The notes: generated from the sequence alone by a model not told the origin. A DNA stretch of 64,000 bases from Spirochaetia bacterium (GCA_963675665.1 OY776510.1:3872001-3936000), one strand, 5' to 3'. Shown: positions 34,578 to 52,854, numbered from the stretch's first letter. Made by a program: numbers and translations.

Positions 34578-34725
34578 CGCTAACGCGCCAGGAATATGCG
34601 AAGTTGAAGTGAAGCCAAAGGAGTGTTTTGCCAATGAGCAAAACCGACTGCCCCTGCTCTGCTTCTCAGCAAGCTTCAATTTGGGTGTAGGCCGTATGGC
34701 CGAGCCGCATATTTGCTTGTTAGAT
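34578..34725 (-). repeat. attC-like site 1
   Basis: Minus strand ATCTAAC...GTTAGCG; inner arms AATATGCG/CGCATATT; homologous to sites 2-4. Confidence 0.85.
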
Positions 34726-34881
34726 GCCGTTTCTTTCATGGTTGATTTATAGTGTTTTTGTCAAATACATGGATGTATTTGACACCATAATTAGTTTCAA
34801 AACTTTTGTCCTTAGTCAGAACTTAATGCTCCCTTTATCTCAGATATAAGCTCACCAATCTTTGTCTTTTCCTCTTCTGAT

Positions 34882-36089
34882 TGTTTAGTGAGAGTATTTC
34901 CCTGACACTCACCCCGAAAAATATATAATTTCATTATGCGGCAGTGCCGCCATTGTCCTCGTCTTTTTCTACTTCCTCAAGGAATACCTGAAAGGGTATT
35001 CTACCCTTCATATTGCGTCCTTGATGTGCTCGTTCATTATTGTAGTACTCCAGAAACTTATCCAGATCTTCCTGCATCTCAGATAATGATTCGTAATATT
35101 TTTCACGACCTTTAATTCTAAAATGCTCATCAAGTAAAGTTCTGTGAAGCCGCTCAACAAATCCATTACTTTGCGGTCTGCAGACCTTTGTTGTCCTATG
35201 CTCTATATCTTCAAGCTGAAGGAATAATTCGAAAGGATGATGGTCCGGTCTTCCGCAGTACTCACGTCCATTGTCGGTAAGCACATTCTTAACCTTCACA
35301 TTATGTTCCTCGAAAAAAGGCAGAACATCATTATTTATTACCTGAACTGCAGTCACCGGCAGCTTATTTGTATACAGCCTTCCCCAGGCATGACGACTAT
35401 GACAATCAATCACTGTTTGTAAATATATTTTCCCTATTCCTTTCAGATGTCCGACCATAAAGGTATCTATCGAAACGAGATAACCAGTATGCTTTGTTTC
35501 GATGTGTCTCTCTCTGAACTCAGGATTAAATCTTTCAAGTAGTTTTATCTGGTCATCATTAAGCTTGAATTTTTTGTTCTTCAATTTTTCTTCCAAGCGT
35601 AAAAGTCGCTGGTGGCGGGTTTCCATTTTATGTCTAACCCATACTCCACGGACCCCGCCGGAGCTTACATTCACACCCTTCAAAGCAAGCTGCTGAGAAA
35701 CTCTCAGACAACCATGAGTTGGGAACTCCAAACTATAATCCAGAATCTCTTTTTCAATTTCAGGTGCTACTCGATTTGGATGTGGATTCCGTGGTCCTGG
35801 TAAGCTGTCGATTAATCCCTGAGATCCGTAGGTTTGATAATTACGTCTTATCTCATAAAATTGCTGCCGGGAATAACCCATAATTCGACATGCCTTACTT
35901 ACATTTCCTAAATCTTCTGCAAGCTCTAACATACTCATCTTTCGTCTCGCAGCTTTCTGTGCTACAGTCTTGTTGGTGGCCATTTGCTCCTCCTGATAAA
36001 TGTTTTTGTGGTGAAATCATTATATCTTTCGGAGGTGTTTTGGCCACCTATTTTTTAGCCAACTGTCAGGTTAATACGATCACTGTTCA
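34882..36089 (-). mobile_element. IS481 family insertion sequence
   Basis: Imperfect 26-bp TIRs TGTTTAGTGAGAGTATTTCCCTGACA / TGAACAGTGATCGTATTAACCTGACA, flanked by the TTCTGAT direct repeat (34875-34881, 36090-36096). Confidence 0.92.
34934..35983 (-). CDS. IS481 family transposase
   Basis: N-terminal HTH LGNVSKAC; DDE integrase core (IDT, LTDNGREY, NGFVER). Confidence 0.95.
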   Translation of the reverse strand: MATNKTVAQKAARRKMSMLELAEDLGNVSKACRIMGYSRQQFYEIRRNYQTYGSQGLIDSLPGPRNPHPNRVAPEIEKEILDYSLEFPTHGCLRVSQQLALKGVNVSSGGVRGVWVRHKMETRHQRLLRLEEKLKNKKFKLNDDQIKLLERFNPEFRERHIETKHTGYLVSIDTFMVGHLKGIGKIYLQTVIDCHSRHAWGRLYTNKLPVTAVQVINNDVLPFFEEHNVKVKNVLTDNGREYCGRPDHHPFELFLQLEDIEHRTTKVCRPQSNGFVERLHRTLLDEHFRIKGREKYYESLSEMQEDLDKFLEYYNNERAHQGRNMKGRIPFQVFLEEVEKDEDNGGTAA

Positions 36090-36251
36090 TTCTGATAAAG
36101 AATCATCTAGAATTACTCTAACAGAATCAATATCTGAATATAATTGATCAATAAACTTTATATAATCAAAATCATTTTGTTCTTGACCTTCTATAATGCT
36201 AACACTTAATTCATCTTCATCAGGTTTCCTATAAAATTTAATTTCCATTAT

Positions 36252-38570
36252 TTACCCCCTGAAACTTTTAAGATTATATTTTTTTACTCTTTTTTTTATA
36301 GATGGTTTGCCACCGTCTGTAATTTCTGCAATATAATCAACTACACTTTTTGAGTTTATTTTACCTTCTAGAGCTTCTGAACGAATTATTATTTTTTCTG
36401 CACTTTCACACAAAATAATATTCTGAGCATCTCCTAACATTGGAATTGTAGCATTATGAGATACAAGTATAATTTGTTTTTTACTTTTAATATTTTTTAT
36501 TGCTTTTATTAATCCAACATTAATGTAATTTGTTGCTAAATTATCTTCTGGTTGATCAATAATTAATGGTGCAGTGTCACCTAAATATCCCAATATGAGA
36601 TCCAAAATAACTGATGTTTTCCATCCTGCACTTAATTCTTCAAAATTTTTACCTGAAGCGGTAGTGATACGATATTTTATCTTATTAAGTTTATCAAATT
36701 CATGATATATCTTTGATTTGAAATCATCATATGATTGTATTTTAGGATTTTGTTTTCGAAATTTATCAATATATAAATTTTCTGGACTGATTTCTTTAAA
36801 AGAATTAATTCGATTATTTGCTTTCAAATATATATTTAAGACTTCTAAAAACTTATCTTTCGTAAGTTGAAAATCATTTTCAATGAATAATTCATGATCC
36901 ATAACTTTTTCTTTTTCAGTTTTACATTTTATAGAGTATTTGGATATTTTTTCTAATGTATTATAAAAAATATCTAGTTGCCTTTTGTATTCAGATACTT
37001 TATTTATTAATCTTTCAAAATCCAATTTTTTACTTTGGTGTTTTTGATTTTCTAAACTTAGATTTCTATCAAATTCTTCTTTATAATCATTTATCTTTCC
37101 TCGAATGATATTCTCACTTATAGATATATTATATGCTTTTAAAAGCTTCTCTTCTAACTCATTAAAAATTGATTCGTCAATTTCAATAAATGGATTTTCC
37201 TCAATAAAACTTTTTATAGAAGTAAGATTATTCAAATGCTTTTGGTAAGTTAATTCTGGATATTCAATCTTTCTGATTGTATTGGAACTTGGAAGTAAAA
37301 GGGAAAAAACATTATGTTTGATTTTTTCAGTTAATACCAACCTAGAAATTACTGGAATTTGTTTAAAATCATGCTGTATGCTTTCAATATTCTCAATAGA
37401 ATCTATTAATGAATCTAGATCCTGTTTTAATCCTATTAAAGCGTCTCTTACCTTAGCAATAATCTCAGTATTCCCTGGAAAAACTTTTTTTATTATTGGG
37501 ATATCATCAATATCTTTTTTGCTATTTTCATGTATTAATTGAATTATATAATTTTGATCAATATAATGAGGAACTAAGCCTGACGGGTTCCTAATCTCTA
37601 TATCATTAACAGAAAATTTTTCATAAATTATATTTATTTCACTATTATTAAGCTTTCTAAACACTGAATCAACAAATAATGTCTTTCCACTAGAAGAACC
37701 ACCAATAACAACATTTAAGCCAGGAGAAAGCATAACATCTATATCAATAAATTCATTATTTAGCTTCACTTCACTTATAAATTCAGACCAGTGTTGGGGA
37801 GGTTCTTTAGAATATACCATTCTTGAGGATTCTGACAAAGCTAATCTTAAACCACTAAATGTTGGTTGTGAATAAATCCACGTAGGAATAAATTCACTTG
37901 CATTTGGATCCTTAGCGCTAGGATAATTACTTGGATTATAATTATCTGTACAAGTAACTAAATTTATGAACTCTCTAATACCAAGCCTATCAAAATATTC
38001 CAATGTATCTTGTAAGCCCCTTTCATTTCTTGCAGTAAATCCATCGAATTGATTGTAATAGATATTTCTTTCTAATATTGAATCATATCTGACACCAGTT
38101 TCAGTTGATATAGACTTATGAAATTGTTTATGATTTTGACCACCATGTGGTAGTAGTATAAAATCATAATTATCAAAGTTTCTAATTATTGTTTCAATAT
38201 TTAATTTAAAATCATCATCACCATCAATTATCTTATTTGGATACAAATTATCCAATATTTCATTTATATCATCTATTTCTGCTTCTGTAATATTATCTAT
38301 ATTGAAAAATATATGGCAATGATATAGAGGCTTGTTATCATAATTAAAAATGTGCAATTCTACACCTAAAACAACGTTTTTTGTTTTTTCTAATAATTTC
38401 ATATATGCAAGCTTATTTATCGTATTATGATCTGTTAAAGATATTAGAAAATCCGAATTTGCTGACACTTCAGATATTTTTGATAAAAGTAAATCTACAT
38501 TATATTCTTCATTAAGCTGATTAGGATTCTCTGAAGTGTGAATATGTAAATCTGTATAAATAGGTTTCAC
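36252..38570 (-). CDS. PHP phosphoesterase-ABC ATPase fusion (Ppl/TrlF-like candidate defence protein)
   Basis: DLHIHT, LTDHN, GVE, HCH; Walker A GGSSSGKT; LSAGWK; IIDQPEDNL; VSHN. Very AT-rich. Confidence 0.85.
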   Translation of the reverse strand: MKPIYTDLHIHTSENPNQLNEEYNVDLLLSKISEVSANSDFLISLTDHNTINKLAYMKLLEKTKNVVLGVELHIFNYDNKPLYHCHIFFNIDNITEAEIDDINEILDNLYPNKIIDGDDDFKLNIETIIRNFDNYDFILLPHGGQNHKQFHKSISTETGVRYDSILERNIYYNQFDGFTARNERGLQDTLEYFDRLGIREFINLVTCTDNYNPSNYPSAKDPNASEFIPTWIYSQPTFSGLRLALSESSRMVYSKEPPQHWSEFISEVKLNNEFIDIDVMLSPGLNVVIGGSSSGKTLFVDSVFRKLNNSEINIIYEKFSVNDIEIRNPSGLVPHYIDQNYIIQLIHENSKKDIDDIPIIKKVFPGNTEIIAKVRDALIGLKQDLDSLIDSIENIESIQHDFKQIPVISRLVLTEKIKHNVFSLLLPSSNTIRKIEYPELTYQKHLNNLTSIKSFIEENPFIEIDESIFNELEEKLLKAYNISISENIIRGKINDYKEEFDRNLSLENQKHQSKKLDFERLINKVSEYKRQLDIFYNTLEKISKYSIKCKTEKEKVMDHELFIENDFQLTKDKFLEVLNIYLKANNRINSFKEISPENLYIDKFRKQNPKIQSYDDFKSKIYHEFDKLNKIKYRITTASGKNFEELSAGWKTSVILDLILGYLGDTAPLIIDQPEDNLATNYINVGLIKAIKNIKSKKQIILVSHNATIPMLGDAQNIILCESAEKIIIRSEALEGKINSKSVVDYIAEITDGGKPSIKKRVKKYNLKSFRG

Positions 38571-38752
38571 ATAAGACTCCTTTATACTATATTTTTAATA
38601 ATCTAATTCAAGCCTCTTTCTTGCACGCCATGGACGGCGGGCTCTTACTTAAACACTCCCAACCATTAAAGAAATTGCCTATAACGTTCCGGGCATATGC
38701 GAAGTTGAAGCGCAGCCAAAGGAGTGTTTTGCCGTAAGCGGTAATTCTTCCC

Positions 38753-40285
38753 CTATGACTTTATCTGTTCAGCGGTCAGGTTGAATGGTAGCAGTTTTTC
38801 ATAATCTGCGGGTTCTTCACAGTACGGTAACTTGCGAAAAACATAGTAGAAGTAATCATAGACCGATAGCTTCTGCAATTTAGCAGATTCAACAAGACTG
38901 TAGAGTACCGCCGAAGATTCGGCTCCATGTTCGGTGTCGGAAAACAACCAGTTCTTCCGTCCGATTACAAACGGCCGGATTGCATTTTCAGCAATGTTGT
39001 TCGACGGAGTAAGCAGCGGATCTTCCAGGTATAACTTTAACTGAACCCAGTTATCAAGCGTGTATGATATCGCCTTCCCGAAAGCCATTGTAGGCGGAGT
39101 CCCTGCTGCATGTTTAGTAAGCTGTTTGAATAAAGAATCAAGGATAGATCCGGCCTGGTTGGCTCGATGCTTCTGAAAGCCTTTTTTGGAATATTGCTCG
39201 CGCAGGGCTTCAAGCTCGAACAGGTCTTTAATCAATTCAAGTATATGTTTTACTTCCGGAGATTTAGACATCTCCCAGTATTTATAAAAATACCTTCTGG
39301 CATGCGCCCAACATAAAACATGACGAGGTCCATCATGTCCATCTTTTCGCAGCCTTTTCAAAGCAGTGTGATAGGCCTCATAATCATCAGTCTGCAACCA
39401 ACCGGTATAACCTTGCAGAAAATCATACGGTATTTCATGAGAACGGCCTGTTTCATACTGAAACACTACCGATTTTTTATCAGGTTTTCCGCCAAGAAAG
39501 ACCCACATCCAGGATTTATCCTGTGCTTTGCGACCTTTTTCTTTCAAAACCTGTACCCGGGTTTCATCGGCATTTATTATCGGCCCGTTTTTAATATTAT
39601 CTTTAAGCAACTCATAAATCGGTCTGCATTTATCAGCGCACTTTATTGCCAATGTGCTCAGTGTTGCCCTTGGAATATCTGCACCAATTGTATTCAGTCT
39701 CTTGCTCTGACGGTAGAACGGGAGAGCATATTCAAACTTCTCATTTATGATCCACGCGAGAAGGCTTTCATCGGCAATGCTCCCGGCGATCAGATGTTTA
39801 ATCCCTTCAGCAGTCTGCACCCCCGAAGTTTCATCGGTGGTTCCTTCACAATTTCTGCAAACATATTTTTTCTTTATCTCACGCCTGACTACTACTTTCG
39901 CAGGAACTATGCATAGCCGTTCGGAGACATCTTCACCAATACAAATCTTCTCAGTTCCGCAAGCGCATGTTTTATCTTCCTCATCAATATCGTATTCAAT
40001 AATTTCTCGGGGAAGATCTTCTGACAGAGCTTTTCTACCGACACCCTTACGAACAGTTTTCGTGTGAGCTTTTACTTCACGGGTCTCAGTTTCTATTTCT
40101 TCGTTCTGCTCAAATGCCGTATCCTCTGCCTCGTTGAAAAGTGACGCCTGTTTTTTATCTTCATTCGTGAGCTTCTCTGATTTTGTTCCGAAATGAAGAG
40201 ATTGCAAAAGCTGGACCTGCTCTTCTAATCGGGCAATTTTTATTTTTAATTTCTCATTCTCTTCAAGCAAAGCCTGGCTGTTCAT
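38753..40285 (-). CDS. tnpC: IS66 transposase TnpC
   Basis: FG.KSEK, zinc finger, NADET, LQTDDY, CWAHARR, NN.AE.AIRP..IGRKNWLF. Confidence 0.96.
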   Translation of the reverse strand: MNSQALLEENEKLKIKIARLEEQVQLLQSLHFGTKSEKLTNEDKKQASLFNEAEDTAFEQNEEIETETREVKAHTKTVRKGVGRKALSEDLPREIIEYDIDEEDKTCACGTEKICIGEDVSERLCIVPAKVVVRREIKKKYVCRNCEGTTDETSGVQTAEGIKHLIAGSIADESLLAWIINEKFEYALPFYRQSKRLNTIGADIPRATLSTLAIKCADKCRPIYELLKDNIKNGPIINADETRVQVLKEKGRKAQDKSWMWVFLGGKPDKKSVVFQYETGRSHEIPYDFLQGYTGWLQTDDYEAYHTALKRLRKDGHDGPRHVLCWAHARRYFYKYWEMSKSPEVKHILELIKDLFELEALREQYSKKGFQKHRANQAGSILDSLFKQLTKHAAGTPPTMAFGKAISYTLDNWVQLKLYLEDPLLTPSNNIAENAIRPFVIGRKNWLFSDTEHGAESSAVLYSLVESAKLQKLSVYDYFYYVFRKLPYCEEPADYEKLLPFNLTAEQIKS

Positions 40286-40323
40286 AAATAAATTTTAACA
40301 TGATTAAATTCCGGTGTGAAGCA

Positions 40324-40668
40324 TTAAACGCGGGAATATGATAATTCTTTATGCGCGTTGAAGAAATCTATCCCGTCCAGCAGCATCTTAAGTTCCTCGA
40401 ATCTGATTTCTCTGGCCTCTTCTTCTGTTTCAGGCCAGGGAAACTTGTTCTTCTCCAACCGTTTCTGCCATAGGCAGAATCCGTTTCGATCCCAGTAGAC
40501 AATTTTCAAAAGTTTTTGTTGGCCGTTACAGAACAGAAACAAACTTTTCGAAAACGGGTCATTATGCATTACGTTCTGAATCTGAAGGCTCAATCCGTTT
40601 ACCCCTTTTCTTAAATCCGTTTTGCCGGGCCGTATAAAATATCGGTAATCTGTATAATCGAAAATCAT
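40324..40668 (-). CDS. tnpB: IS66 accessory protein TnpB
   Basis: TDLRKG.NGL, KIVYWD.NGF.LW.KRLE..KF.WP. Confidence 0.95.
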   Translation of the reverse strand: MIFDYTDYRYFIRPGKTDLRKGVNGLSLQIQNVMHNDPFSKSLFLFCNGQQKLLKIVYWDRNGFCLWQKRLEKNKFPWPETEEEAREIRFEELKMLLDGIDFFNAHKELSYSRV

Positions 40669-40961
40669 TCAAGTTCTCCGATTATTCTCAGAACTGATTT
40701 CAGCTCGGCTTCATCAAACCCGGCAGTTATTGATATTAAAAACTTTTTGGACTTCAATACAATTGGTGCAGCTGCTACAGATTGAACGGGTTTTATTTCT
40801 ATTATCTCTGAGCTCTTTGACAGGTTCATACCGAACCGTTTTCTGTGCTTATAGAAAGTATTTGGATGAATTTCAATCTCTTTGCAAAACTCCGGAATTG
40901 ATTTTCCGCTCATCTGTTGTTGTTCAAATATTTCTTCCCAGTTTTTGATTATCTTCTTCAT
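40665..40961 (-). CDS. tnpA: IS66 accessory protein TnpA
   Basis: W....QQMSGKSIPEFC..IEI..TFY HTH; GGAGG RBS before 40961. Confidence 0.88.
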   Translation of the reverse strand: MKKIIKNWEEIFEQQQMSGKSIPEFCKEIEIHPNTFYKHRKRFGMNLSKSSEIIEIKPVQSVAAAPIVLKSKKFLISITAGFDEAELKSVLRIIGELE

Positions 40962-41195
40962 TTCATTCCTCCGTGATTCTTTTCCCGGAGGATAGTACAT
41001 TTTCAGATTTTCGCAAGAAGGAAAGAATTACCGCTTACGTTTTGCCAAAGAGCAAAACCGACTGTCTTGTTCAACTTCTTCGCAAGCTTCAATTTGGACG
41101 AAGGGCGAATGCCCGTAGTCGCATATGCCCTGTTATAAGCTGTGTTTCCGCTCTTCGACCAGGCCGCACGGCGGAGTCAAGGTCTGGTCTCTTCA

Positions 41196-44100
41196 TTATC
41201 GCTCCCCTTTTTTATCTACGCTTATATTTTCAATTCTATGTATTTCTAGCATTTCAATCCCAAATTCTTCACATATTTGCTGTTTATATTTGAAATCTTC
41301 AATTTCAAACATATATAAATATTTTCGAACTGTCTGTGATAACACATTTTTGGCTAAGGGATTGTGATCCAAATCTTTATTTAATCGTCTTAGTAAAGCT
41401 ATAGGAAATTTAATAAAATGATCTACTTTTATTACAGCATCAATTAATCTGTATGCTGTAGATTGATTAACCTTCAATAATCTTTCAAAAGTCACTGATA
41501 GATTTTCTGAACCAACAAATTGTGAAACTCTAGATATAAAAGTATAAGTAAGGATCGAGCAAATTCTTGAAAGATAAGCTATTGCATAAGCTTCAACAAT
41601 TTCACGATCTTCAGTATCGTATACGGGTTGAGTTTGCATGATCTTACTTATCTCAGTAGCTATCTTCTCAGGATTTTCCATAATTGATCTTAATATTAAA
41701 CCAAGAGGTTTTAATAGAAGAAGATAAGTATTTTCTACCAATTTTAATTTTTCATCTCCTTCTAATGATGCATAAGAATTTTTAACAACTTGTCCAATTA
41801 TTTCAGCCAACTTTATCGAATAGGATATTTTATCAACAATTGTAAGCTCTTCTTCAATATCAATACAACCATCACAATCCTCTTCCTTTTTTTCCTTATC
41901 TTCTATTTCATCTCTTTGCTTTAAGTCTGAGTTTCTAGCATCTTCAACATTAATATGATTTAAAACCAATTTAGGCATCTCATTGTAGATTTTATTTAGC
42001 TTTTTAATATCATCATCAAGTCTTATAGGCTCTTCTTCACTAAATAATAAAGTTGCGGCATTTAATAATGAATCAATAATAATTGGATCTTTACTCAAAT
42101 AAGACAGAAACATCAAAATATTTGAATAATTTTCATTGTGTGGTTTTGATGCCATATTTGAAATTGTCTCTTTGATTTTTGTCTTAGATATTTTATCTGA
42201 CATATATTTTGCTGTAAAAAAGAAGAACATATATTTATATGCAAAAAAGTAACGACCATCTTTATGTAATAATACTTCTGACTGAAGAGTTTCTTTCAAT
42301 ATTGTATCAATTCTATTTTGAATATCATGTCTCTCTGCATGGTCGTAACAGAAGCTCTCAAAATCAAGATCATCCAAATACTTATGGTCGTTATTAAACA
42401 TTGTAAACGCAAGAGAAGATAAAAAATTATTAAATGCATTAATTGCTTCTGGAGATGGATTACTATTTTTCAATGAATCTAAAATTAATGTCTGATAATA
42501 ATAACCATATGAACTCTGATGAAAATTAGTAGGATCGATTTCTGTGATATTTTGTAATAGTACTAGAATAATCAATGGATATGAAGGAGTTAAATTTTTA
42601 CCAACTATTTTATTTATAATATCTGTAACATTATCTAATTCTCTTAAATGTTCATTTATACTGTTATAAGGATCATTATTCAAGGAATACCATTTTTTAA
42701 TTAATAAGGATCGTCTAAAATTCCCAAATTCTTTAATTTGGAATAGTTTAAATCCATTGTATATAATTGAAGCCTCTGGCTCACTTCCTGTTAATTCTTC
42801 AATCTCTAATAGATCATGTGAAGTGAGTACGATATTTATAAAAATATCCTTAAGAGAATCCATATATTTCCTTCTGAATCTCCTAGGAATACTGGATTCA
42901 TCAAAATCATCAATCAATATAACTTTCTTATCATTATCGATTGTATCGAATTCACTTTCCTTTATATTTTTATATTGTAATAAAGCTTCTCTTCTAATTA
43001 GCGATTGGAGCTCTTTATTATTTGTAGATTTAATTTTAGCTCCATCTATCCAAATCGGCATATACCCATCATGCAACAATGTACGATAGAGCTTTTTTAA
43101 TACTGTGGTTCTACCACTTCGACCTTGCCCTAAAATTATGTATTTCGAACCTGTCTTTTTATTAAAATTGAGTGCATTCTCACTATTAATAACTGAAGAT
43201 TCATAAGATACTCTTTTTAGCGGATCTGGATTCAAATGATGAAAATCTGGATATACAAATATATCATCTAATTTTAAATTAGTTATTTGTGGATGATGTA
43301 AATTTGCCCCTATATCATTAATAAAATTCTTTATCTCTGCTTTTAAAGATAAATAACTTTCATTTTGTCTGGGAATAATAAGAGATATTTGTTCATCATC
43401 AACATTATTTTTAATAAGTTCGCCCTCTTTTATATCAAGTATATATTTTTCGAGCTTATAATTTCCTTCACTATTTTTCTCTATGAGATATGAATAAAAA
43501 GCATTATCTTTAGAATCTAAGAAACTGCTTCCATCAGAATAATATGTAATTTGAGATTTTTCATTGCTTCTCATACTACTTCCTAACCAATGCTCATGGC
43601 CAGTTAAAACAATATTTGAACAACTTTCAATATAATCTCTTAATCTCTTAGAACTCCAAGATTTAAACCAATTTAAAGGGTGATGCATTAAAGTTATTGA
43701 AATACCATTGCTAGGTTGCATATATTCTGATATCAGTTGCTCTGGCAGAATTATCTTTCCTTGTACCTCCGGGTTCGAAGTCATCCAAGCACTATTTATA
43801 GAAAATATATTTAATACATTATCATCAACATTAATGTTTTTTTTCCATATTATTTGGTTGTCTAGAAATGCTCCCGACATAGAATTAAATTCATTAATAA
43901 AGTCAAAAAAAGATCGTTGAGGTTCCGTACATATTTCAATTGTTTCATTATCAAGTTCTTCACTATCATCTTCATTACTTATAATATCACGTATCAATCT
44001 TTCTCTTAGTTTATTTTTTTTCTCAAAATAACAATCATGATTACCGGGAACAATAATTATTTCAGCTCTCGGTTTTCTTAGTTTATTATATTCGTCAAGT

Positions 44101-44303
44101 AAATCAGATAATAAAATATAGGCATTCAAATAACCATCAATATTACTTTGATTAGAAATATCACCAGTGATTAATAGAAGAACTAAATCACATGAATCTG
44201 CCAAATTTTTAGTAACTGTAAAAATATTGTTAAAATATGATTTCAATTCATCAGTTATTTCTCCGATATGCAAATCACTTAAATGCAAAATTAAATACTT
44301 CAT
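41196..44303 (-). CDS. Metallophosphoesterase-STAND/NACHT-like NTPase fusion (candidate defence protein)
   Basis: LHLSDLH, ITGD, PGNHD, HHP, GHEH; P-loop GQGRSGRT; Walker B VILIDD; long helical C-terminus. Confidence 0.85.
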   Translation of the reverse strand: MKYLILHLSDLHIGEITDELKSYFNNIFTVTKNLADSCDLVLLLITGDISNQSNIDGYLNAYILLSDLLDEYNKLRKPRAEIIIVPGNHDCYFEKKNKLRERLIRDIISNEDDSEELDNETIEICTEPQRSFFDFINEFNSMSGAFLDNQIIWKKNINVDDNVLNIFSINSAWMTSNPEVQGKIILPEQLISEYMQPSNGISITLMHHPLNWFKSWSSKRLRDYIESCSNIVLTGHEHWLGSSMRSNEKSQITYYSDGSSFLDSKDNAFYSYLIEKNSEGNYKLEKYILDIKEGELIKNNVDDEQISLIIPRQNESYLSLKAEIKNFINDIGANLHHPQITNLKLDDIFVYPDFHHLNPDPLKRVSYESSVINSENALNFNKKTGSKYIILGQGRSGRTTVLKKLYRTLLHDGYMPIWIDGAKIKSTNNKELQSLIRREALLQYKNIKESEFDTIDNDKKVILIDDFDESSIPRRFRRKYMDSLKDIFINIVLTSHDLLEIEELTGSEPEASIIYNGFKLFQIKEFGNFRRSLLIKKWYSLNNDPYNSINEHLRELDNVTDIINKIVGKNLTPSYPLIILVLLQNITEIDPTNFHQSSYGYYYQTLILDSLKNSNPSPEAINAFNNFLSSLAFTMFNNDHKYLDDLDFESFCYDHAERHDIQNRIDTILKETLQSEVLLHKDGRYFFAYKYMFFFFTAKYMSDKISKTKIKETISNMASKPHNENYSNILMFLSYLSKDPIIIDSLLNAATLLFSEEEPIRLDDDIKKLNKIYNEMPKLVLNHINVEDARNSDLKQRDEIEDKEKKEEDCDGCIDIEEELTIVDKISYSIKLAEIIGQVVKNSYASLEGDEKLKLVENTYLLLLKPLGLILRSIMENPEKIATEISKIMQTQPVYDTEDREIVEAYAIAYLSRICSILTYTFISRVSQFVGSENLSVTFERLLKVNQSTAYRLIDAVIKVDHFIKFPIALLRRLNKDLDHNPLAKNVLSQTVRKYLYMFEIEDFKYKQQICEEFGIEMLEIHRIENISVDKKGER

Positions 44304-44383
44304 ATGCACTCCATATACATTCTTTATTCTTCATCGCCCGTCGGCCGGAGGTCCGGGCGTCTTCCTCTTAGCGGAAACATTGC

Positions 44384-44532
44384 TTATAACGTTCCCAGCA
44401 TAACCGAAGTTGAAGCGCTACCAAAGGAGTGTTTTGCCATAGAGCAAAACCGACTGACCATGCTCTGCTACTTTCGCAAGCTTCAATTTGGGTGGAGGCC
44501 GAATGGCCGGAACCGGTTATGGTGTGTTAGAT
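44384..44532 (-). repeat. attC-like site 3
   Basis: Minus strand ATCTAAC...GTTATAA; arms CATAACCG/CGGTTATG. Confidence 0.87.
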
Positions 44533-44659
44533 GCCGTTTCTGTCTTGGTTGGTTCTATGATGAATTTGTCAAATACAAGGATGTATTTGACAGAGCAATT
44601 GATTTCATAATTTTTTACTTTCTCCCCCTTTAAGGAATATGATACTAGGTCGTATCTCT

Positions 44660-46819
44660 TCAAGATGTTATAGCTTTTACATCATTATATAAAACACATA
44701 GGTGTTTATCTGACATGTCTATTATAGGTTCAAACATAAATGAATTAACATGGATATTCTCTGGAGTCATCAAATTAACTCTTTCTAATATCTTTGTATT
44801 CTCATTATCATCAACAAATTTTCTTTTAAATTCTTTAAATAGTTTACCAGTTTGGTTTTTTTTAATTCTACTAACAAAATCTCTATCATCTATTTTATTT
44901 ATCATAAAATCTTCAGCAAAAATGCGAATAGCCATGGATAAAACTATTTTTTTTTCTAAACAAAACCCAGATGAATCATCACTATTCACATATACTTCTG
45001 CAGTTTCACAAATAATATCTTGTATATTTTTATTATCATCTAAATCAAATTTGAATTCTATATCATTAAAAAATGATTCATAAATTTCTTTGATTTTACC
45101 AACAGTGATATTCTCACTATTTTCTTTTATATGTAATACTGAAGTTAAATCGCTAAAAATACTATTATTTCCAGTATATTCCGATAAATTCCTTGTAAAA
45201 GGTATTGATGCTATAAGCTTACTTGCATTGTCTAAATTCTTTTTCCAGAAAATAAACGGATTTGCAATATATGAATATTTTAATTTTTCAAGTTTGATAT
45301 TTCCTTCATCTCGCTCAGCAATATAAGAGCACATATATCGGTTCATTCCGATTCTGTCTTGTATCGTTCTAAAAAAATCATAATTATGCGTTAGAATAAT
45401 CATATAAAAATCATGATAATTACAAATATCTTTTAAGTATTCAATTATTGCGTATTTATTCTTATAATCAAATGAATCTGCAATATCATCTACAATAATT
45501 AAGTTTTCTGTACCTTTCTTTTTTCTTGATTCTATTTCAAAGATAATATTTAGCAGATATAGTGTTCTTCTTTCTCCTTGACTTAGTATTTTAATTAATA
45601 CGTCTTCATCAATTGGTTTATTTCCATGATAATTATATTTAATACTAGGGGCTACATCTTGAAGAACTGTTTCATCTTTATTCTCTATCTCTATATTATA
45701 GGGAACATAAAAGCGTCTATTAAATATATCTAATACTTTTTCCCAATCGGTTTTTTCTTCTTTTGCAGTTTCTACAACTTCTCTAATTTTTTCTTTATTC
45801 GTTCTGTATATATCAATTATTTCAGTATATTCAATTATCTTTTCAAAAATAAATGATAATACTACTTTTCTCTTAAATTCTTCAGGTTCACCTAATTCAG
45901 TAATTATTTCTTGATTTTCAAATAAGTATTCTCTAAGCGTTCTTAATTGTGCATTTGAAACTTTTTTATCAATTTTTTCAAATAGCTTTGAAATATCTTC
46001 ATCTTCTAATATTCTTTCTTTCTCTTCTTTAATAATCTCACTAAATGTCTCTTGATCGGAGATTTCTGTTTTATCACCATTATTATTTAAATTTATAGAA
46101 TGTTCTGCTTTAAAGAAACCATTGTCTGTTAATTGTTTATGGACTGTTGTTGCATTATAATGATTAAAATCTTTCTTCAAATATGTTGAATCTTGGATTA
46201 GCTGGTCATATCTATTTATATATTCACCTATTTCAGATTTAACAGATTTAATAAAATCAAAATTCTTTTGCTCGAATAAAATACCATAGTCGATAATGTC
46301 ATTATTGATTAAATTGTCTTTTTTGATTTCTGTTTCAAGTGTTAAAAGTAATTCTAAAAAATTATCATTATTAAACGTTTTCTCAATTTCATCAGTAATA
46401 TTTGCAGTTCTTTTTAATTTGAATAATGGTGTTATTGCTTCAATAAATTTTTCTTTCCCCTTATTGATATCCTCATATAATGCTTCATAAATTGATCTTA
46501 ATTCTTCATTAACAAGCAAGACTGTCATAGCATCTGATTTATAAGTTCTATCATAGGGATTAATTACAAAAACTTTATTAAAATCAATAATATTGTTTGA
46601 TTCATCTACAATAGTACGTAATGATTCCTTATCATTGTAAACTTCATCCTTACTATTATTACCTTTTGAAAAATCATCAAATGTTCTTGAAAAAGATGTT
46701 TTCATTACACCATTAGGAGCATATATAACATATACATTTTTATTATCGCTAAAATCAAATTCAAATTCTAAATCTTCAATTCCATAACAGTTCTTAAAAT
46801 CAATTTTTAATTTCTCCAC
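44660..46819 (-). CDS. ABC/SMC-like coiled-coil ATPase (AAA_13/RloC-like architecture; candidate defence protein)
   Basis: APNGVMKTS, long coiled coil, LSQGERR, IIVDDIADSFDYKNK, LTHN. Confidence 0.8.
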   Translation of the reverse strand: MEKLKIDFKNCYGIEDLEFEFDFSDNKNVYVIYAPNGVMKTSFSRTFDDFSKGNNSKDEVYNDKESLRTIVDESNNIIDFNKVFVINPYDRTYKSDAMTVLLVNEELRSIYEALYEDINKGKEKFIEAITPLFKLKRTANITDEIEKTFNNDNFLELLLTLETEIKKDNLINNDIIDYGILFEQKNFDFIKSVKSEIGEYINRYDQLIQDSTYLKKDFNHYNATTVHKQLTDNGFFKAEHSINLNNNGDKTEISDQETFSEIIKEEKERILEDEDISKLFEKIDKKVSNAQLRTLREYLFENQEIITELGEPEEFKRKVVLSFIFEKIIEYTEIIDIYRTNKEKIREVVETAKEEKTDWEKVLDIFNRRFYVPYNIEIENKDETVLQDVAPSIKYNYHGNKPIDEDVLIKILSQGERRTLYLLNIIFEIESRKKKGTENLIIVDDIADSFDYKNKYAIIEYLKDICNYHDFYMIILTHNYDFFRTIQDRIGMNRYMCSYIAERDEGNIKLEKLKYSYIANPFIFWKKNLDNASKLIASIPFTRNLSEYTGNNSIFSDLTSVLHIKENSENITVGKIKEIYESFFNDIEFKFDLDDNKNIQDIICETAEVYVNSDDSSGFCLEKKIVLSMAIRIFAEDFMINKIDDRDFVSRIKKNQTGKLFKEFKRKFVDDNENTKILERVNLMTPENIHVNSFMFEPIIDMSDKHLCVLYNDVKAITS

Positions 46820-46958
46820 AGTTTCCTTCTCTTATAATTATTTTTCCTTAATATTTAAAAATCAGCAGATTTACCAATAATATTATTCAATCCTTCTTCA
46901 TACCCGCCACGGACGGCGGGCTCTTCCTTAAACAATCCCAACCAAGACAGAAATTGCC

Positions 46959-47105
46959 ATCTAACGGCCCGGGTTAAGCGAAGCTGATGCGCAACTTAAG
47001 GAGTGTTTTGCGAATGCGCAAAACCGACTGGCCCTGCTCTACTTCTTCGTCAGCTTCAGTTTGGGTGGAGGCCGAATGGCCGGAACCGCTTAACCATTGT
47101 TAGAT
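46959..47105 (-). repeat. attC-like site 4
   Basis: Minus strand ATCTAAC...GTTAGAT; arms GGTTAAGCG/CGCTTAACC. Confidence 0.87.
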
Positions 47106-47336
47106 GCCGTTTCTTGGTTGGTTGAAGAATAAATTGGCAAAATACACGGATGTATTTTGCAACACAACCAATTTATTAATATTTCACTTCTCTTTCTCTA
47201 TCCAGAATCATGAATATAGATTTTGACTACTCCAAAACCTTTGTTAAATGTCTGTTTTACCTGACCGCACGGCGGAGCCAAGGTCTGGCTCTAATTTTAA
47301 AAATATATTTCTTATTGCTTTTTACAACACATAATA

Positions 47337-47680: not shown

Positions 47681-47684
47681 AAAG

Positions 47685-47862: not shown

Positions 47863-47885
47863 CTCAAGCAATACTTAAAATTTTC

Positions 47886-48701
47886 CTACTCAACAATTTT
47901 TAATTCTTTTAATATTTGCAGCATTACTGTTTTTGCTTCACCATATTTACCCGGAAAATCAGATTTATTTTTTTCAAGATTTGTAGAAATAAAATAGACA
48001 TTGCTATTTGTCTCGATATATCCTACAAACCAGCTATAATAAACATTATCAAGCCTCATAACCGTTCCGGTTTTTCCTGATAATTTATAATTTTCATTTT
48101 CATCTAATGCTAAAAGCTCTTTTACTATATTCTGCGATCTCTTTGAAAATGGCAAATCCAATGAGTATAATTTCTTTATAAGTTCAATTTGCTCCATTGC
48201 AGATATTTTCATATTTCCTTCTAACCAGAAGATATCCACTCCGGAATCAATATTCTGATTACCGTAATTTAATTTATCCAGATATTCCTGCATTCGCTCA
48301 AACCCGATCCGCCTTGCAATTTCCTGATAATACCAGACTACAGAGCTTTTCATTGCACTTTCTAGGGTTTGATTTTTATTCCAGGATTTAAATTCATATT
48401 CTGTTCTATCCCATTCAATTTGATAATCTTTGTCAGAGGCAACTCCTGATTCCAAGGCAATGAGTGAATTATAAATTTTAAATGTGGAGGCCGGCAAAAT
48501 ACCCGATTCAGCCAAGTCTTCGTTATAAATAGAATATATTTTTTTATTTTGATCATAGATTATTATGCAACCCTGAGAATCAATTGCCTCAAAATATTCT
48601 CCAAAATCTTGAACCACAATTTTTTTTCCACTTTGACAACTTGTAGTCAGCATGATGAAGCCAAGTGAAATAATGATTAATATTGATTTATACTTTTTCA
48701 T
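47886..48701 (-). CDS. Class D beta-lactamase (OXA-like) or BlaR-sensor-like lipoprotein
   Basis: PASTFK, SVV, YGN, FWL, KTG motifs; lipobox TTSC. Confidence 0.88.
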   Translation of the reverse strand: MKKYKSILIIISLGFIMLTTSCQSGKKIVVQDFGEYFEAIDSQGCIIIYDQNKKIYSIYNEDLAESGILPASTFKIYNSLIALESGVASDKDYQIEWDRTEYEFKSWNKNQTLESAMKSSVVWYYQEIARRIGFERMQEYLDKLNYGNQNIDSGVDIFWLEGNMKISAMEQIELIKKLYSLDLPFSKRSQNIVKELLALDENENYKLSGKTGTVMRLDNVYYSWFVGYIETNSNVYFISTNLEKNKSDFPGKYGEAKTVMLQILKELKIVE

Positions 48702-49717
48702 TGTAATTCTCCTTTTATAGATATACCATGTATAGCCGGTCCTGTTACATCAATTCTATCAGTGATAATGTAAGCATCGTAGCGTTGAGGAATTAACTCC
48801 AAATCCTCTTTTGTATCGAATCCGCCTGACCAGTCACCTTTCATCATAACAAGCACAACACGACTGTTAACGCTCTCCATCCTATCAATAAATTTCATCG
48901 GCCAGCCCCATAAAAATCTTGCATACTTTAAAGGTATATGAACCCCCATATTCCTGATACTTTCCGGAATATATCCTGTCCAGCCTATCATCATATAATG
49001 AAGAAGCCCCTTTTGAAGTGTTTTTCTTGTAAAAGATTTCATTTCCGGGTAGACATTGGTAATCAACTCCAGCGCCTCATCATTACCGTATATCGAATAG
49101 TTTTCTCTCTCTTTTTCATCCATCTGCTGTAATTTCTTCAACAAGACATACCCAATCGGTTTTCCGCTATCTTTTATATGAATAAGAAACTTCTTTTCGG
49201 GAAACTCAGCCACAACCTTATCAAAAGATGGCATTAATCCTAAGGCCTTGTTTCTGAATGGAAATGTTTCTCCATTATCAAAGGTATATCCATAGCCTAT
49301 ATCCAATTCCTGCAACTCCGTTAGAGTATAGTCGATAACAAAACCTTTCCCGTTTGTTCTGTAATCCAGTAAATAATCATGAAAGACAGCCAGTTCTCCA
49401 TCCTTAGTCAGCCGCACATCAAATTCAACAACATCAGCACCGAAATCAAAAGCAGCCTGCATAGACTCTATTGTATTTTCAAGTTGATTGTGTTCAGGTT
49501 TGTATATGATTGATGCAGTATTTGTATTCCAGTTAACATTCTCAATATCAAAAGTCTGCCCCAAGCCTCGATGCGCAAGCAGCAGTGGCTTACCAGCAGG
49601 TTTGTTGTAAGTAAATATATTTGTATTATTAAAAAATATAAACAGTATAAGTCCGGCGAACGATATGAGTATAATTTTCTTTTTCAATTTTTTCTCCTCA
49701 ACTACTATCATTAGCAT
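48698..49717 (-). CDS. Glycerophosphodiester phosphodiesterase family protein
   Basis: AHRG, ENT, VEFDVRLTKDG..VFHD, ITDR. Confidence 0.92.
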   Translation of the reverse strand: MLMIVVEEKKLKKKIILISFAGLILFIFFNNTNIFTYNKPAGKPLLLAHRGLGQTFDIENVNWNTNTASIIYKPEHNQLENTIESMQAAFDFGADVVEFDVRLTKDGELAVFHDYLLDYRTNGKGFVIDYTLTELQELDIGYGYTFDNGETFPFRNKALGLMPSFDKVVAEFPEKKFLIHIKDSGKPIGYVLLKKLQQMDEKERENYSIYGNDEALELITNVYPEMKSFTRKTLQKGLLHYMMIGWTGYIPESIRNMGVHIPLKYARFLWGWPMKFIDRMESVNSRVVLVMMKGDWSGGFDTKEDLELIPQRYDAYIITDRIDVTGPAIHGISIKGELQ

Positions 49718-49749
49718 GAAGACTGAATTTTCTATATAGATCTTCGGAT

Positions 49750-50673
49750 CTAATTTTTAGATTTCAACGCTGATATAAGTTCATACCGGCCTTGGCAGCT
49801 AGTTTTATGGAGAATACTGTGAACATGATGTTTGACTGTACTAATTGAGATAAATAATTCTTCTGCAATTTTTTTATTACTTAGACCGCCTCCCAACAAC
49901 ACAAGAACCTCCTGCTCTCTGTTGCTCAGCCTGAATTTCGTACAGAATTTAAGTATGCGAATCTTGTAATCATCATTAAACCGAAGAAGATTTACCATAT
50001 AAAAATTAAAAAAGAGGCCAAACAAAAATATCGAGACTGCGGACAGAGGGTAAGCCATACTCAGAGAAACTTCAGCTCTGTAAAGTTTGAACCGAATGAA
50101 GTATGCATCAATAACGCACATAACGGGTGTGGTCATTAGATAAATTGACATTAACTTATAAAATAAAGACGTAACCCCTCTTTTATTGGCTATCAAAACC
50201 AGACCAGAAACAAAAAGAATACAAAGAAAAGACAAACCAATAGAGTTCTTTAACCAAAAGAAAAGCGAATAATGTCGCCCAAATATATGATGGGAAAATT
50301 TTGACAATATAAATATCATAGTAAAAAAGCAGATAACAGGCAGAATCATTCCAGATTCGAAATCTTTCACCCCCCGATTCTCTTTTCTTGCCAATAGAGC
50401 AGTCAATAAGGAATTAACCACTAATATCGAAATTCCAATAATCGCTATTGAATCAAAACATGTATACAAAACAGAATCAATCGGGATTATATTTACAACC
50501 AGATAGCCGGAGAGAAACGAAAACAGGAGAAAAACCTCCAAACCGCAGAATGACATACATAAGTATCTGTAAAATAAATTCTGTGTTTTTATCCACCCGG
50601 CATAAAGATTACGGATATTAAGCGAGACTATCAGCATATTGATTATAAAAAATATTAGAATTATATGTTTCAT
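49750..50673 (-). CDS. Membrane-bound LuxR-type regulator
   Basis: About 7 TM segments plus C-terminal [28 protein letters not shown]. Confidence 0.88.
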
Positions 50674-50819
50674 ATTAAAAGCTGTTATATGTCAATTACC
50701 ACTTTATAAATTTTATATTTCTCATAGCCCGTCGGCCGGAGGCCCGGGCTATTTCTTCCTTATTTTACACCCATCAACGCTATATTTCTAACATTTATAT
50801 TTTTTCTCTATTTTCGTGC

Positions 50820-50965
50820 ATTTAACGACGATTTCAGCTGCGCACTCGATCCTGGAGCAGAGCGGAAGGAATTGGCGCGGTTTTAGAGTGTAGCGAGATC
50901 AGCGCGAAACGTCTCTGCTAAAACCGAGACAATAGACGGCGACTGCTGCATTTGTCATGTCATAC
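50820..50965 (-). repeat. attC-like site 5 (different sequence family)
   Basis: Minus strand CCGTATGAC...GTTAAATG, 146 nt, with CGGTTTTAG/CTAAAACCG arms. Its inner box complements GTTATACGG at 51781-51789. Confidence 0.7.
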
Positions 50966-51022
50966 GGATTTTTTCTTTCTATCTTTATATCTCCTTAAAT
51001 TTGTGACTTTTCTATTATATAA

Positions 51023-51640
51023 TTATTTAATCTTTTTCACTATATAATCAATATATACTTGTCGGATAAATTCACCTTCAAACATTCTTTCCAGAATTCT
51101 TTTTTCTTTGATTATCAATTTCATATCTTTAAAATATCTATCTGCTTCTATATCTTCATGAAACACGTGTATCACTTTATCATTATCCTCTTCTTGTTCA
51201 AATTCCATATTCCCTAATTCAATTCCAATTCCACACATAAAATCATCGACCGATAAAAAGTTAAGAAAAAGTAATCCATTAGTCTTTAAAACTCTTTTTA
51301 TCTCTATTATTGATTCTTCAATATCTTCTTTTTTCATATGAAATATGGAATTATAGGAATAAACAGCATCAAATTCTTGATCAGAATAAGGTAACTTTTT
51401 CATATTCCCTTTTATAATATTTAGTTCTTGATCTCTCAATTTTGAAAATTCATATGCAGCGTCTATTTGTTTGTCATTATTTTCGATACCATAAGTATCA
51501 TATCCATATTCTTTAAACAAACTTAATGGCGGTTGATTGCCACCTGCACCACAATCTAATATTTTTTTGTCAGAACATTCACTATTACATATACTTAGAA
51601 ATCTATACAAAGGAATTTGTCTAAATACTTGTTTCATCAA
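51023..51640 (-). CDS. Class I SAM-dependent methyltransferase
   Basis: ILDCGAGG, GNMKKLPY....FDAV, IKRVLK.NG. Confidence 0.9.
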   Translation of the reverse strand: MMKQVFRQIPLYRFLSICNSECSDKKILDCGAGGNQPPLSLFKEYGYDTYGIENNDKQIDAAYEFSKLRDQELNIIKGNMKKLPYSDQEFDAVYSYNSIFHMKKEDIEESIIEIKRVLKTNGLLFLNFLSVDDFMCGIGIELGNMEFEQEEDNDKVIHVFHEDIEADRYFKDMKLIIKEKRILERMFEGEFIRQVYIDYIVKKIK

Positions 51641-51891
51641 TTAACCTCATTTTCTTATTACATATTTGAAATCATACATATATTTCATATTTATTAATTT
51701 TATCAACTATTTCACGAAGTCTGAATCACCCCTAAATGACCCACATATTTGTTACATTCCTTAAAGATGAATTTATAATTCCGTATAACATATTATGCTT
51801 AGTGTTTTACTTAAATACTATTAAATTCTTCTCCTGCCAGCCATGGATGGCAGGCTCTTCCTTAAAAAATCCCAACCAAGAAAGAAATTGC

Positions 51892-51912
51892 ATCTAACTC
51901 AGTTTTATACGC
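51892..51912 (-). other. attI-like site at the head of the array
   Basis: Minus strand GCGTATAAAACTGA-GTTAGATG followed by the conserved cassette leader, with no attC body upstream. Resembles attI1 TAAAACAAAGTT. Confidence 0.55.
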
Positions 51913-52787: not shown

Positions 52788-52830
52788 ATCTTCTTAATCC
52801 GTGAAATCAGTGGTTCAATAACTCTCTTCA
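52788..52830. repeat. 43-bp exact direct repeat, copy 1
   Basis: ATCTTCTTAATCCGTGAAATCAGTGGTTCAATAACTCTCTTCA; identical to 53927-53969. Confidence 0.9.
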
Positions 52831-52854
52831 TCATCATCTTCAATAAAGAAAAAA

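Follow-up and report, generated by a model that had tools for sequence, protein, structure and literature searches.

Cassettes of an integron-type array in a Spirochaetia genome have ends that are complementary to each other beyond the R box and may mark one strand

A window of 64,000 nucleotides (nt) from the genome of a Spirochaetia bacterium (GCA_963675665.1 OY776510.1:3872001-3936000) contains an array of integron-type gene cassettes in which the two ends of each cassette are complementary to each other beyond the R box. Counted from the G of GTT, the first ~20 nt of a cassette are the reverse complement of its last ~20 nt, which run to AAC. The array is probably built of integron-type cassettes with a non-canonical recombination site, here designated type X, and with a bottom-strand stem, maintained by selection, closing the recombination hairpin of one cassette. 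That the own-end stem is a selected single-strand structure is the firmest part of this reading, and very probably correct. The textbook example of a recombinase guided by DNA shape rather than sequence comes from integrons, whose accepted site extends no further than the 7-bp R boxes; recognition of this site is tied to a domain specific for the integron integrase IntI.

The window cassettes, designated C1 to C4, are 2.4-4.8 kb long and are separated by four imperfect palindromes of 146-149 nt, which on the reading strand start with ...TAAC and end with GTTA... (Table 1). Their inner stems vary by compensatory change, as in GGTTAAGCG with CGCTTAACC, CATAACCG with CGGTTATG, and AATATGCG with CGCATATT. 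Over ten sites of this genome, double compensatory changes were found at 10 of 20 predicted inner-stem (L''/L') pairs, and TAAC and GTTA are invariant among the type X sites used for the model described below. Type X sites are thus imperfect palindromes bounded by RYYYAAC and GTTRRRY with a covarying inner stem, as attC sites of integrons are; the extrahelical L-box bases and the roughly symmetric central spacer of attC are missing from them. A sequence-only reading of the window had reported complementary ends for C2, C3, and C4, and all three pairs lie exactly where it placed them. The fourth cassette, C1 (51898 / 47099), shows the end pairing as well, with a 4-nt deletion.

Local alignment scores beyond the R box are 12, 16, 10, and 13 within C1 to C4, and 10, 5, 4, and 3 at the four junctions. 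The 5' end of C1, which scores 12 with its own 3' end, reaches 14 with the 3' ends of C2 and C4. The arms had been sorted by the sequence-only reading into two families, A and B, and the window's family-B cassettes (C1, C2, and C4) cannot show cassette-specific ends because their own ends pair no better than each other's. Support from the window alone is therefore thin, and many cassettes were needed, with borders fixed without looking at the flanks.

A covariance model, R1, was trained on ten sites of this genome, each trimmed to the stretch running from R'' through R', flanks excluded. It finds 16 sites in this genome and, at E <= 0.001, sites in 24 of 101 related genomes, this genome (G000) included. 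When 20 array regions, the window, and a second type X array of this genome (array 2, L009) were searched with R1, 132 matches with E <= 1 were obtained. The 115 matches of at least 26.6 bits were kept, excluding two half-matches of a site split by an insertion sequence (IS), and the IS66-split site of the window was added by hand. The resulting set holds 116 type X sites from 13 spirochaete genomes, in arrays of up to ~40 sites; each of the 97 pairs of neighbouring sites was treated as a cassette. These include pairs with a missed or canonical site between them, the inclusion of which works against the claim. For position-wise comparisons, a cassette was dropped if either of its ends differed at no more than 4/20 positions from that of a cassette retained earlier, which left 58. 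Three window cassettes have two mapped sites, and none of them is among the 58, because their ends resemble those of array-2 cassettes retained before them. Two other searches were rejected: a loose structural genome scan (AAC...GTT plus inner duplex) gave 1312 matches everywhere, was too unspecific, and was replaced by R1, and nhmmer with the four window sites recovered only the long site variant.

In this larger set, local alignment of the 28 nt past the R box gives a mean score of 8.88 for the two ends of one cassette, 5.39 for ends meeting at a junction, and 5.04 for random pairs, so the claim of the sequence-only reading that own ends are more complementary than ends facing each other across a junction is borne out over the 97 cassettes; complementarity no better than that of random ends, which would have told against it, was not seen. 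Scores of 10 or more were reached by 43/97 cassettes, 5/116 junctions, and 1.1% of random pairs, and scores of 12 or more by 19/97, 0/116, and 0.4%, respectively. In ungapped comparison of the 5' end with the reverse-complemented 3' end (58 cassettes), identity is 0.60-0.81 at positions 5-19 with the exception of position 11, falls to 0.48 at position 20, and is at background from position 22; for random pairs it is 0.24-0.66. Counted from the G of GTT, a typical stem reaches position 20-21, that is 12-13 bp beyond the 7-bp box and not ~20 bp beyond it as first proposed, and stems of ~27 positions occur only in the window's family B.

At positions 13-20, the 58 cassettes have on average 5.19 matches of 8, compared with 2.16 when all ends are shuffled and 2.95 when they are shuffled within arrays, and none of 10,000 permutations reached the observed pairing, whether over all cassettes or within arrays only. 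The distribution is bimodal. Seven or eight matches of 8 are present in 29/58 cassettes and in 12/3306 random pairs. The 29 well-paired cassettes carry 28 different 8-mers at these positions, so that in place of two arm families there are at least 28 private paired sequences, and the covariation that the sequence-only reading had suggested looking for is present. All four Watson-Crick pair types occur at positions 13-19, where at least 29 of 32 in-register cassettes are paired. Within one family of homologous ends, the paired 10-mers differ by matched changes (GAGCCCGACA, GGGCTCAACA, AAGCCAGGCA, and GAACCCGTCA), and a further matched difference separates TGTTTCCGCT in C3 of the window from TGTTCCCGCT in array 2. 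Because otherwise homologous ends change in matched fashion, this is covariation rather than shared descent of a fixed repeat.

Position 11 departs from this pattern in a regular way. It is A on 56/58 of the 5' ends and G on 48/58 of the reverse-complemented 3' ends, with an identity of 0.02, and the A/G combination is present in 29 of the 32 in-register cassettes. Mismatches marked in the arms by the sequence-only reading are real, but that they reflect a fixed A/G difference at this position had been overlooked. On the top (coding) strand the combination gives an A.C mismatch, and on the bottom strand a T.G wobble; with A/G fixed, only the bottom strand can form an unbroken stem. Neither a role in mRNA nor binding of a transposase to a double-stranded repeat is easily reconciled with this. 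The bottom strand also gives the more stable predicted fold in 54/58 cassettes. Outside position 11, wobbles comprise 14 transitions of the bottom-strand type and 7 of the top-strand type, too few to count. In integrons, the bottom strand is the one recombined and has the more stable attC fold, according to Nivina et al. (2016, PMC5027507).

In folding predictions for the bottom strand, the site closed by the cassette's own 5' arm (circle form) has a mean of -32.0 kcal/mol and the site followed by the next cassette (array form) a mean of -24.8 kcal/mol. The advantage of the circle form is 7.2 kcal/mol on average (median 8.7), and this form is the more stable one in 45/58 cassettes (Wilcoxon p 1.5e-8), in agreement with the earlier proposal that a circular cassette forms an extended stem. 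Minimum-free-energy folds of the bottom strand were also computed for 37 small non-redundant cassettes together with both flanking sites. The own ends pair over at least 10 bp in 20/37 of these folds, whereas local closure of the upstream hairpin by the 5' arm is predicted in 10/37. The stem might favour integration over excision, as the sequence-only reading proposed, but according to these folds own-end pairing while the cassette is still in the array could equally help excision.

The canonical arrays of the same genomes served as controls. The genome has one true integron integrase (4525383-4526315, ~590 kb from the window array), which scores 392 bits on TIGR02249 (cut-off 265) and has its closest relatives in Spirochaetales and Spirochaetia assemblies, which identifies the host as a spirochaete. 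The array beside it has 21 sites and 20 cassettes, with sites of a different kind (ATTTAAC-aagaga-TTTGGAGTAG...CTACTCAAA-tcgtc-GTTAAAT). Identity between own ends of these 20 cassettes is 0.80-1.00 at positions 1-9 and 0.25 at position 10. In the integrase-adjacent arrays of relatives G008, G010, G054, and G018 (42 sites after one odd match was dropped, 38 cassettes), it is 0.87-0.97 at positions 5-9 and 0.29 at position 10. In 58 canonical cassettes from five genomes there is thus an abrupt end to the match past 9 bp, and canonical cassettes do pair mainly over the R boxes, as had been assumed. Own-end pairing extends over ~20 bp in type X, ~11 more than in the canonical cassettes, and since both kinds come from the same genomes, the long arm belongs to the type X site and not to the host.

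The two site types have the GTTA...TAAC R boxes in common and differ in what lies between these. The loop next to the R box is one-sided in type X, with the R' side longer by 4 nt in 87/115 sites and by 3 nt in 17, and the L helix is without single-base bulges, that is without extrahelical bases. In the 42 canonical sites, the spacers on the two sides are within 0-1 nt of each other in length, and the R'' arm has two bulged bases with a spacing of 6 bp. These bulges follow the extrahelical pattern of attC, for which Nivina et al. (2016, PMC5027507) give spacers of 5-6 nt per arm and two or three extrahelical bases.

A repeated small cassette, GTTATGCGGACATCGCC...GGCGACGTCGCATAAC, bears on the position of the cassette border. 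Ten copies are present in G008 (L013 and L014, G008:C9) and two in G010 (L015, G010:C4). The 12 copies follow at least six different upstream cores, and identity between them starts at or near G/TTATGC (crossover marked by the slash), as the canonical G/TT crossover predicts; the exact crossover base is not fixable, as GGGAC-G is common to all sites. The same downstream core follows 6/9 listed G008 copies, with three different cores in all, and it follows 4/4 copies of a second family and 3/3 of a third. Nine cassettes sharing ends of ~45 nt have eight different downstream cores. Because one cassette has three cores and nine shared-end cassettes have eight, cores and cassette ends are re-assortable, which is not predicted by the canonical crossover. 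The suggestion that the GTTA...TAAC-bounded unit is itself a recombination substrate is backed by the three cores behind one cassette, but the downstream core usually travels along with the cassette, and the support for this suggestion is weak.

A second candidate enzyme was identified at the head of array 2, which lies at 3512689-3529949 on the plus strand and starts ~430 nt past the stop codon of a co-oriented recombinase gene. The product has a Phage_integrase catalytic domain (PF00589, 143 bits), a SAM-like N-domain (PF13495, 46 bits), and the catalytic R, H-x-x-R, H, and Y, and when aligned with the IntI of this genome it is without the ~35-residue insertion that defines integron integrases; it is therefore a recombinase of the Xer type. 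Its score on NF040815 is 220 bits, exactly the cut-off, and on TIGR02249 190.8 bits (cut-off 265). Orthologues with 52-63% identity are present in nine relatives. The gene is directly upstream of and co-oriented with a type X array in seven genomes (G000, G003, G004, G008, G010, G012, and G056), and the arrays start ~100-700 nt from its stop codon. In G001, G002, and G020 it lies on contigs of at most 3.8 kb, so its array context is unreadable there. A shorter gene (36-39% identity), also without the insertion, stands divergent beside type X arrays in G018, G054, and G079. The additional N-terminal ~80 residues match Pfam HARP with 27.5 bits (cut-off 25), and three homologues score 25.8, 22.5, and 19.6. 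In a structural model with a predicted local distance difference test (pLDDT) score of 71, this part has the HARP domain of SMARCAL1 as its best Foldseek match (E 0.15, TM 0.49-0.57). The HARP fold in SMARCAL1 recognises branched DNA. The chances are even that the Xer-like enzyme is the cognate recombinase of type X sites.

In the mechanism that we propose, the R arm of a type X site would be a duplex of ~20 bp formed by the first and the last ~20 nt of one cassette. As its two strands are the ends of that cassette, the full arm can form only when these ends meet, either in the excised circle or by looping out of the cargo in single-stranded array DNA. Positions 1-7 of the stem are the R box, positions 8-12 a half-conserved G-M-A-A/G-T with the T.G wobble of position 11 on the bottom strand only, and positions 13-20 a part private to each cassette, its complementarity maintained through compensatory change and very probably by selection. 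Positions 1-12 may be the recombinase-binding arm, to which positions 13-20 would add stability, so that the recombinase would be offered a long duplex arm of extra stability. Xer/dif sites have arms of 11 bp, and the binding arm proposed for type X is of about that length. Stem and wobble together may mark the bottom strand as the reactive one, standing in for the missing extrahelical bases. The likely enzyme would be the Xer-like recombinase with the HARP-like N-terminal domain (3511201-3512262), which would act in trans on the window array.

A wider interpretation can be put forward tentatively, and as a whole it is rather doubtful. Spirochaetes may have a second gene-capture system parallel to canonical integrons, with a Xer-type recombinase and its HARP-like domain instead of IntI and with a one-sided loop and a 20-bp wobble-marked stem instead of extrahelical bases; single-stranded DNA of the array would fold on itself into a four-way junction from which exactly one cassette is excised, and the freed circle would bear a strand-marked hairpin.

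Several observations, besides the high cross-scores of C1 given above, speak against this account of the stem and its enzyme. As many as 21/58 de-duplicated cassettes are at background (at most 3/8 matches), some of them pairs spanning a missed or canonical site or with an indel in the spacer. The window array is without a recombinase beside it: no tyrosine recombinase was found among 20 open reading frames (ORFs) scanned from 28.5 to 57.9 kb. The HARP-like assignment is weak, given the marginal Pfam score and the Foldseek E of 0.15. In Firmicutes and Dehalococcoidia, surveyed for the protein alone, homologues of the Xer-like recombinase (~43% identity) occur frequently, under the name 'site-specific tyrosine recombinase/integron integrase'. 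A canonical integrase (E <= 1e-60) is present in 15/23 relatives with type X sites, that of G003 being below the family cut-off, and as both enzymes are found in most type X genomes, their presence or absence over the 101 genomes cannot discriminate between them. The site types also mix, as canonical sites occur within array 2 of this genome and type X cassettes within the integrase-adjacent array of G010. Sequencing reads add no evidence, as Logan contigs of the three public runs (one study) break at repeats. The contig joints listed have short sides of 20-51 nt inside repeated site or hairpin sequence and give no verdict on excision or circles, and the joint from 34631 to 41045 carries a base change pointing to another copy.

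Some of these points favour another explanation, in which the canonical integrase (4525383-4526315) recombines type X sites in trans, the window is an ordinary cluster of attC sites lacking integron-integrases (CALIN), the Xer-like gene is unrelated or a passenger, and the extension only tunes the stability of the hairpin. It is in line with the presence of that integrase in G000 as well as in the 15 relatives, with the R boxes shared by both site types, and with their mixing in two arrays. Tyrosine recombinases without the IntI domain near attC were judged not to be integron integrases by Cury et al. (2016, PMC4889954). We nevertheless regard this explanation as rather unlikely. Type X arrays start close behind the Xer-like gene in seven genomes, whereas all five integrase-adjacent arrays examined are built of canonical sites, and eight genomes with type X matches show no integrase at E <= 1e-60, most of them being fragmented or with few sites. 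Moreover, type X is without the two extrahelical bases of the canonical sites in these genomes. Integron integrases reportedly read the extrahelical bases through the insertion.

The stem could instead act in the array. The bottom strand would become single-stranded, own ends would pair with the cargo looped out, and the flanking sites would be drawn into a pre-formed four-way junction of two L stems, the own-end R stem, and an outer R stem, resulting in programmed excision of a single cassette. The folds of small cassettes, in which own-end pairing was twice as frequent as local closure of the upstream hairpin by the 5' arm, agree with this, and the nested topology would make a pseudoknot unnecessary. 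These folds are a thermodynamic prediction only, which ignores single-stranded-DNA-binding protein, kinetics, and the extent of single-stranded DNA, and the window cassettes are much longer than those folded. A role of the stem in the circle is compatible with this one, which we consider rather unlikely as the explanation of the stem.

Pairing at the RNA level, with a transcript's two untranslated ends (5' and 3') joined so as to protect it or control its translation, for example, is very unlikely: the arms do lie in untranslated flanks beside conserved GC-rich hairpins at both cassette ends, but position 11 is an A.C mismatch on the sense strand and a wobble on the antisense (bottom) strand only, and the arm starts exactly at the crossover G/TT and takes in the R box. 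Least probable of all, and likewise very unlikely, is a transposon-like unit whose arms are terminal inverted repeats read as double-stranded DNA by a transposase, with the GTTA...TAAC unit moving and the cores staying, since the re-assortment of cores with ends that it would explain is outweighed by the privacy of the paired part (28 8-mers in 29 cassettes), where a protein-binding repeat would be conserved, by the one-strand wobble, by the cargo of C2, C3, and C4, which matches no transposase model (the IS66 and rve genes being separate insertions with their own ends), by the lack of target duplications at cassette ends, where the flanks are site cores, and by the downstream core, which stays with the cassette in 6/9 listed G008 copies and in all copies of the two other families.

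Table 1. Features of the window array and the recombinase gene at the head of array 2. Positions are those of the window unless marked as genome positions. The 5' arms are read on the minus strand; the 3' arms are shown reverse-complemented, on the plus strand.
Feature	Position	Strand	Description
Array of integron-type cassettes	34578..51898	(-)	no integrase; at least 4 complete cassettes (C1-C4) and start of C5
Cassette C1	51898-47099	(-)	methyltransferase, LuxR-type regulator, GDPD, and transpeptidase-domain genes
C1 5' arm	51873..51898	(-)	GTTAGATGCAATTTCTTTCTTGGTTG; preceded by ...GTATAAAACTGA
C1 3' arm	47099..47124	(+)	GTTAGATGCCGTTTCTTGGTTGGTTG
C1 type X site	46959..47105	(-)	R'' ATCTAAC 47105-47099, R' GTTAGAT 46965-46959; model R1 149.6 bits
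Cassette C2	46965-44526	(-)	719-aa ATPase
C2 5' arm	46938..46965	(-)	GTTAGATGGCAATTTCTGTCTTGGTTGG
C2 cargo, 719-aa ATPase (SMC-like)	44660..46819	(-)	PADLOC phage-defence candidate PDC-S46, full length, E 9.5e-246
C2 3' arm	44526..44552	(+)	GTTAGATGCCGTTTCTGTCTTGGTTGG
C2 type X site	44384..44532	(-)	model R1 148.5 bits
Cassette C3	44390-41132	(-)	1037-aa metallophosphatase-domain protein
C3 5' arm	44370..44390	(-)	GTTATAAGCAATGTTTCCGCT
C3 cargo, 1037 aa	41196..44309	(-)	N-terminal metallophosphatase domain; PADLOC candidate PDC-S60, E 2.4e-121
C3 3' arm	41132..41152	(+)	GTTATAAGCTGTGTTTCCGCT
C3 type X site	38679..41138	(-)	terminal loop split by IS66; halves match R1 separately, 50.5 and 30 bits
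IS66-family element in terminal loop of C3 site	38734-41038		ends GTAAGCGGTAATTCTT; 8-bp target duplication GGCAAAAC
IS66 tnpC	38753-40285		
IS66 tnpB	40324-40668		
IS66 small ORF	40665-41000		
Cassette C4	38685-34719	(-)	772-aa protein and rve-family IS
C4 5' arm	38660..38685	(-)	GTTATAGGCAATTTCTTTAATGGTTG
C4 cargo, 772 aa	36252..38570	(-)	no Pfam family; residues 630-762 resemble PADLOC Ppl, E 3e-21
C4 3' arm	34719..34743	(+)	GTTAGATGCCGTTTCTTTCATGGTT; GTTAGATGCCGTTTCTTTCATGGTTG from 34719 compared with C4 5' arm
C4 type X site	34578..34725	(-)	model R1 146 bits
Cassette C5 start	34584	(-)	FGE-sulfatase-domain gene
354-aa Xer-like tyrosine recombinase	genome 3511201-3512262 (L002:1252-2316)		heads type X array 2

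From the sequence of its cargo genes, the window array resembles a repository of anti-phage genes. A 271-aa protein encoded in C1 (47886-48701) contains a penicillin-binding transpeptidase domain (PF00905, E 8.6e-41), and the LuxR-type, GDPD, and methyltransferase genes are its neighbours. Just inside the arms, GC-rich hairpins are present at the 5' ends (CGCCCGGACCTCCGGCCGACGGGCG or GCCCGCCGTCCGTGGCGGGT; 44335-44359, 46902-46921, and 50705-50758) and at the 3' ends (GTCAAATACATCCTTGTATTTGAC, for example 44568-44591); they are common to cassettes with unrelated cargo and are present in the main integron array too. The 5'-type hairpin at 50705-50758 is internal to C1, which suggests that C1 is two fused cassettes. 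The IS66 element is multicopy, since its contig depth is ~5x that of its flanks in public runs. Within C4, downstream of the cargo gene, a transposase of 349 aa with rve integrase core and HTH domains is encoded at 34934-35983, probably a second IS insertion of the array.

There is no site upstream of C1, where a PD-(D/E)XK_3 gene (52101-52472) occupies the place of the recombinase gene of relatives. Downstream of the recombinase gene, G008 and G010 have in common an attI-like motif, GGGTTATATG..CAGTTTATAATTCTGA/GTT. Two window strings at ~52105-52065 and 51918-51899 are only loosely similar to it, ...TATTACAAAGGAATATGA/GTTAAATGC at ~52067 and ...GTATAAAACTGA/GTTAGATGC at 51898 (minus strand), and homology is not established. 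At 30060-30110, beside plus-strand WYL-domain and other genes, the R''-proximal portion of a type X site is present in truncated form (...CATAACAAGCAAATATACAGCC...); this is probably where the far end of the array has decayed. Upstream of the array, three copies of a 46-nt repeat (ATCTTCTTAATCCGTGAAATCAGTGGTTCAATAACTCTCTTCA...) are present at 52788-52833, 53927-53972, and 54238-54283 among small minus-strand genes (cupin, GNAT). In an Rfam scan of the window, no family was recognized for the array repeats, the only match being a molybdenum-cofactor riboswitch (RF01055, 58.3 bits, 5638-5757) upstream of a 748-aa ORF.

Two kinds of cassette coexist in the same genomes, canonical ones beside IntI and type X arrays headed by the Xer-like enzyme. 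If the stem is functional, it would give a testable handle on the choice of the reactive strand and on the balance of excision and integration. Gene-capture platforms would then be under-counted by tools in which an integron is defined through the IntI domain and the classical attC model, and the system would bear on the storage and shuffling of defence genes, for which PDC-S46 and PDC-S60 in the window cassettes are candidates.

Type X arrays resemble classical integron arrays (attC of class 1, the 59-base elements, and the Vibrio cholerae repeats, VCRs) in their co-oriented cassettes, in palindromes bounded by TAAC and GTTA with a covarying inner stem, in a boundary that lies at or near G/TT, and in the bottom strand as the more stable fold. 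In both site types, an R box has a closer match in the inverse box of its own cassette than in that of the neighbour. Type X differs from classical attC in its own-end stem of ~20 bp instead of 9, the wobble at position 11, and the one-sided loop of 3-4 nt, and its arrays begin beside a recombinase without the IntI insertion. The window array is no complete integron, as it has no adjacent integrase with the IntI-specific insertion near patch III; provided that type X counts as attC, its four sites (34578-47105) with no integrase among the 20 ORFs scanned make it a CALIN. With at least four sites and an integrase ~590 kb away, it agrees with CALINs as described by Cury et al. (2016, PMC4889954), but its sites are structurally unlike those beside the integrase of the genome, and its sister array is headed by a Xer-type recombinase. 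The same paper mentions fewer than three attC sites for four phylogenetically intermediate recombinases without the IntI domain, in contrast to type X arrays of up to ~40 sites.

The 'reverse' integrons of Treponema and Spirochaetota (Wu et al. 2013, PMC3607928; Ghaly et al. 2022, PMC9668308) have in common with type X arrays a spirochaete host and a recombinase co-oriented with the array, but their integrase is described as a true IntI with the additional domain, which the type X recombinase is without. Wu et al. (2013, PMC3607928) describe attC of Treponema as having both R and L boxes together with a protruding G, and an extended arm is not mentioned in the passages searched of either paper. 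In the literature covered, mainly openly readable main texts, no description was found of own-end pairing beyond the R box, of a wobble in such pairing, or of arrays of attC type with a recombinase devoid of the IntI domain at their head. The ends of type X cassettes point to an undescribed variant of the integron gene-capture system.

Xer/dif systems also offer likenesses. The attP of phage CTX is a folded single-stranded hairpin substrate, and the pdif modules of Acinetobacter plasmids are cargo between inverted sites. Like them, type X would have a Xer-family enzyme without the IntI insertion and a binding arm ~11-12 bp from the cleavage point. Type X differs from Xer/dif in its long arrays of structured sites of 80-150 nt with private covarying stems, and its centre is an asymmetric loop, while that of Xer/dif sites is 6-8 paired bases. 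Seen against all these systems, type X is best described as a variant of the integron cassette and its site, which may belong to a parallel capture system without IntI.

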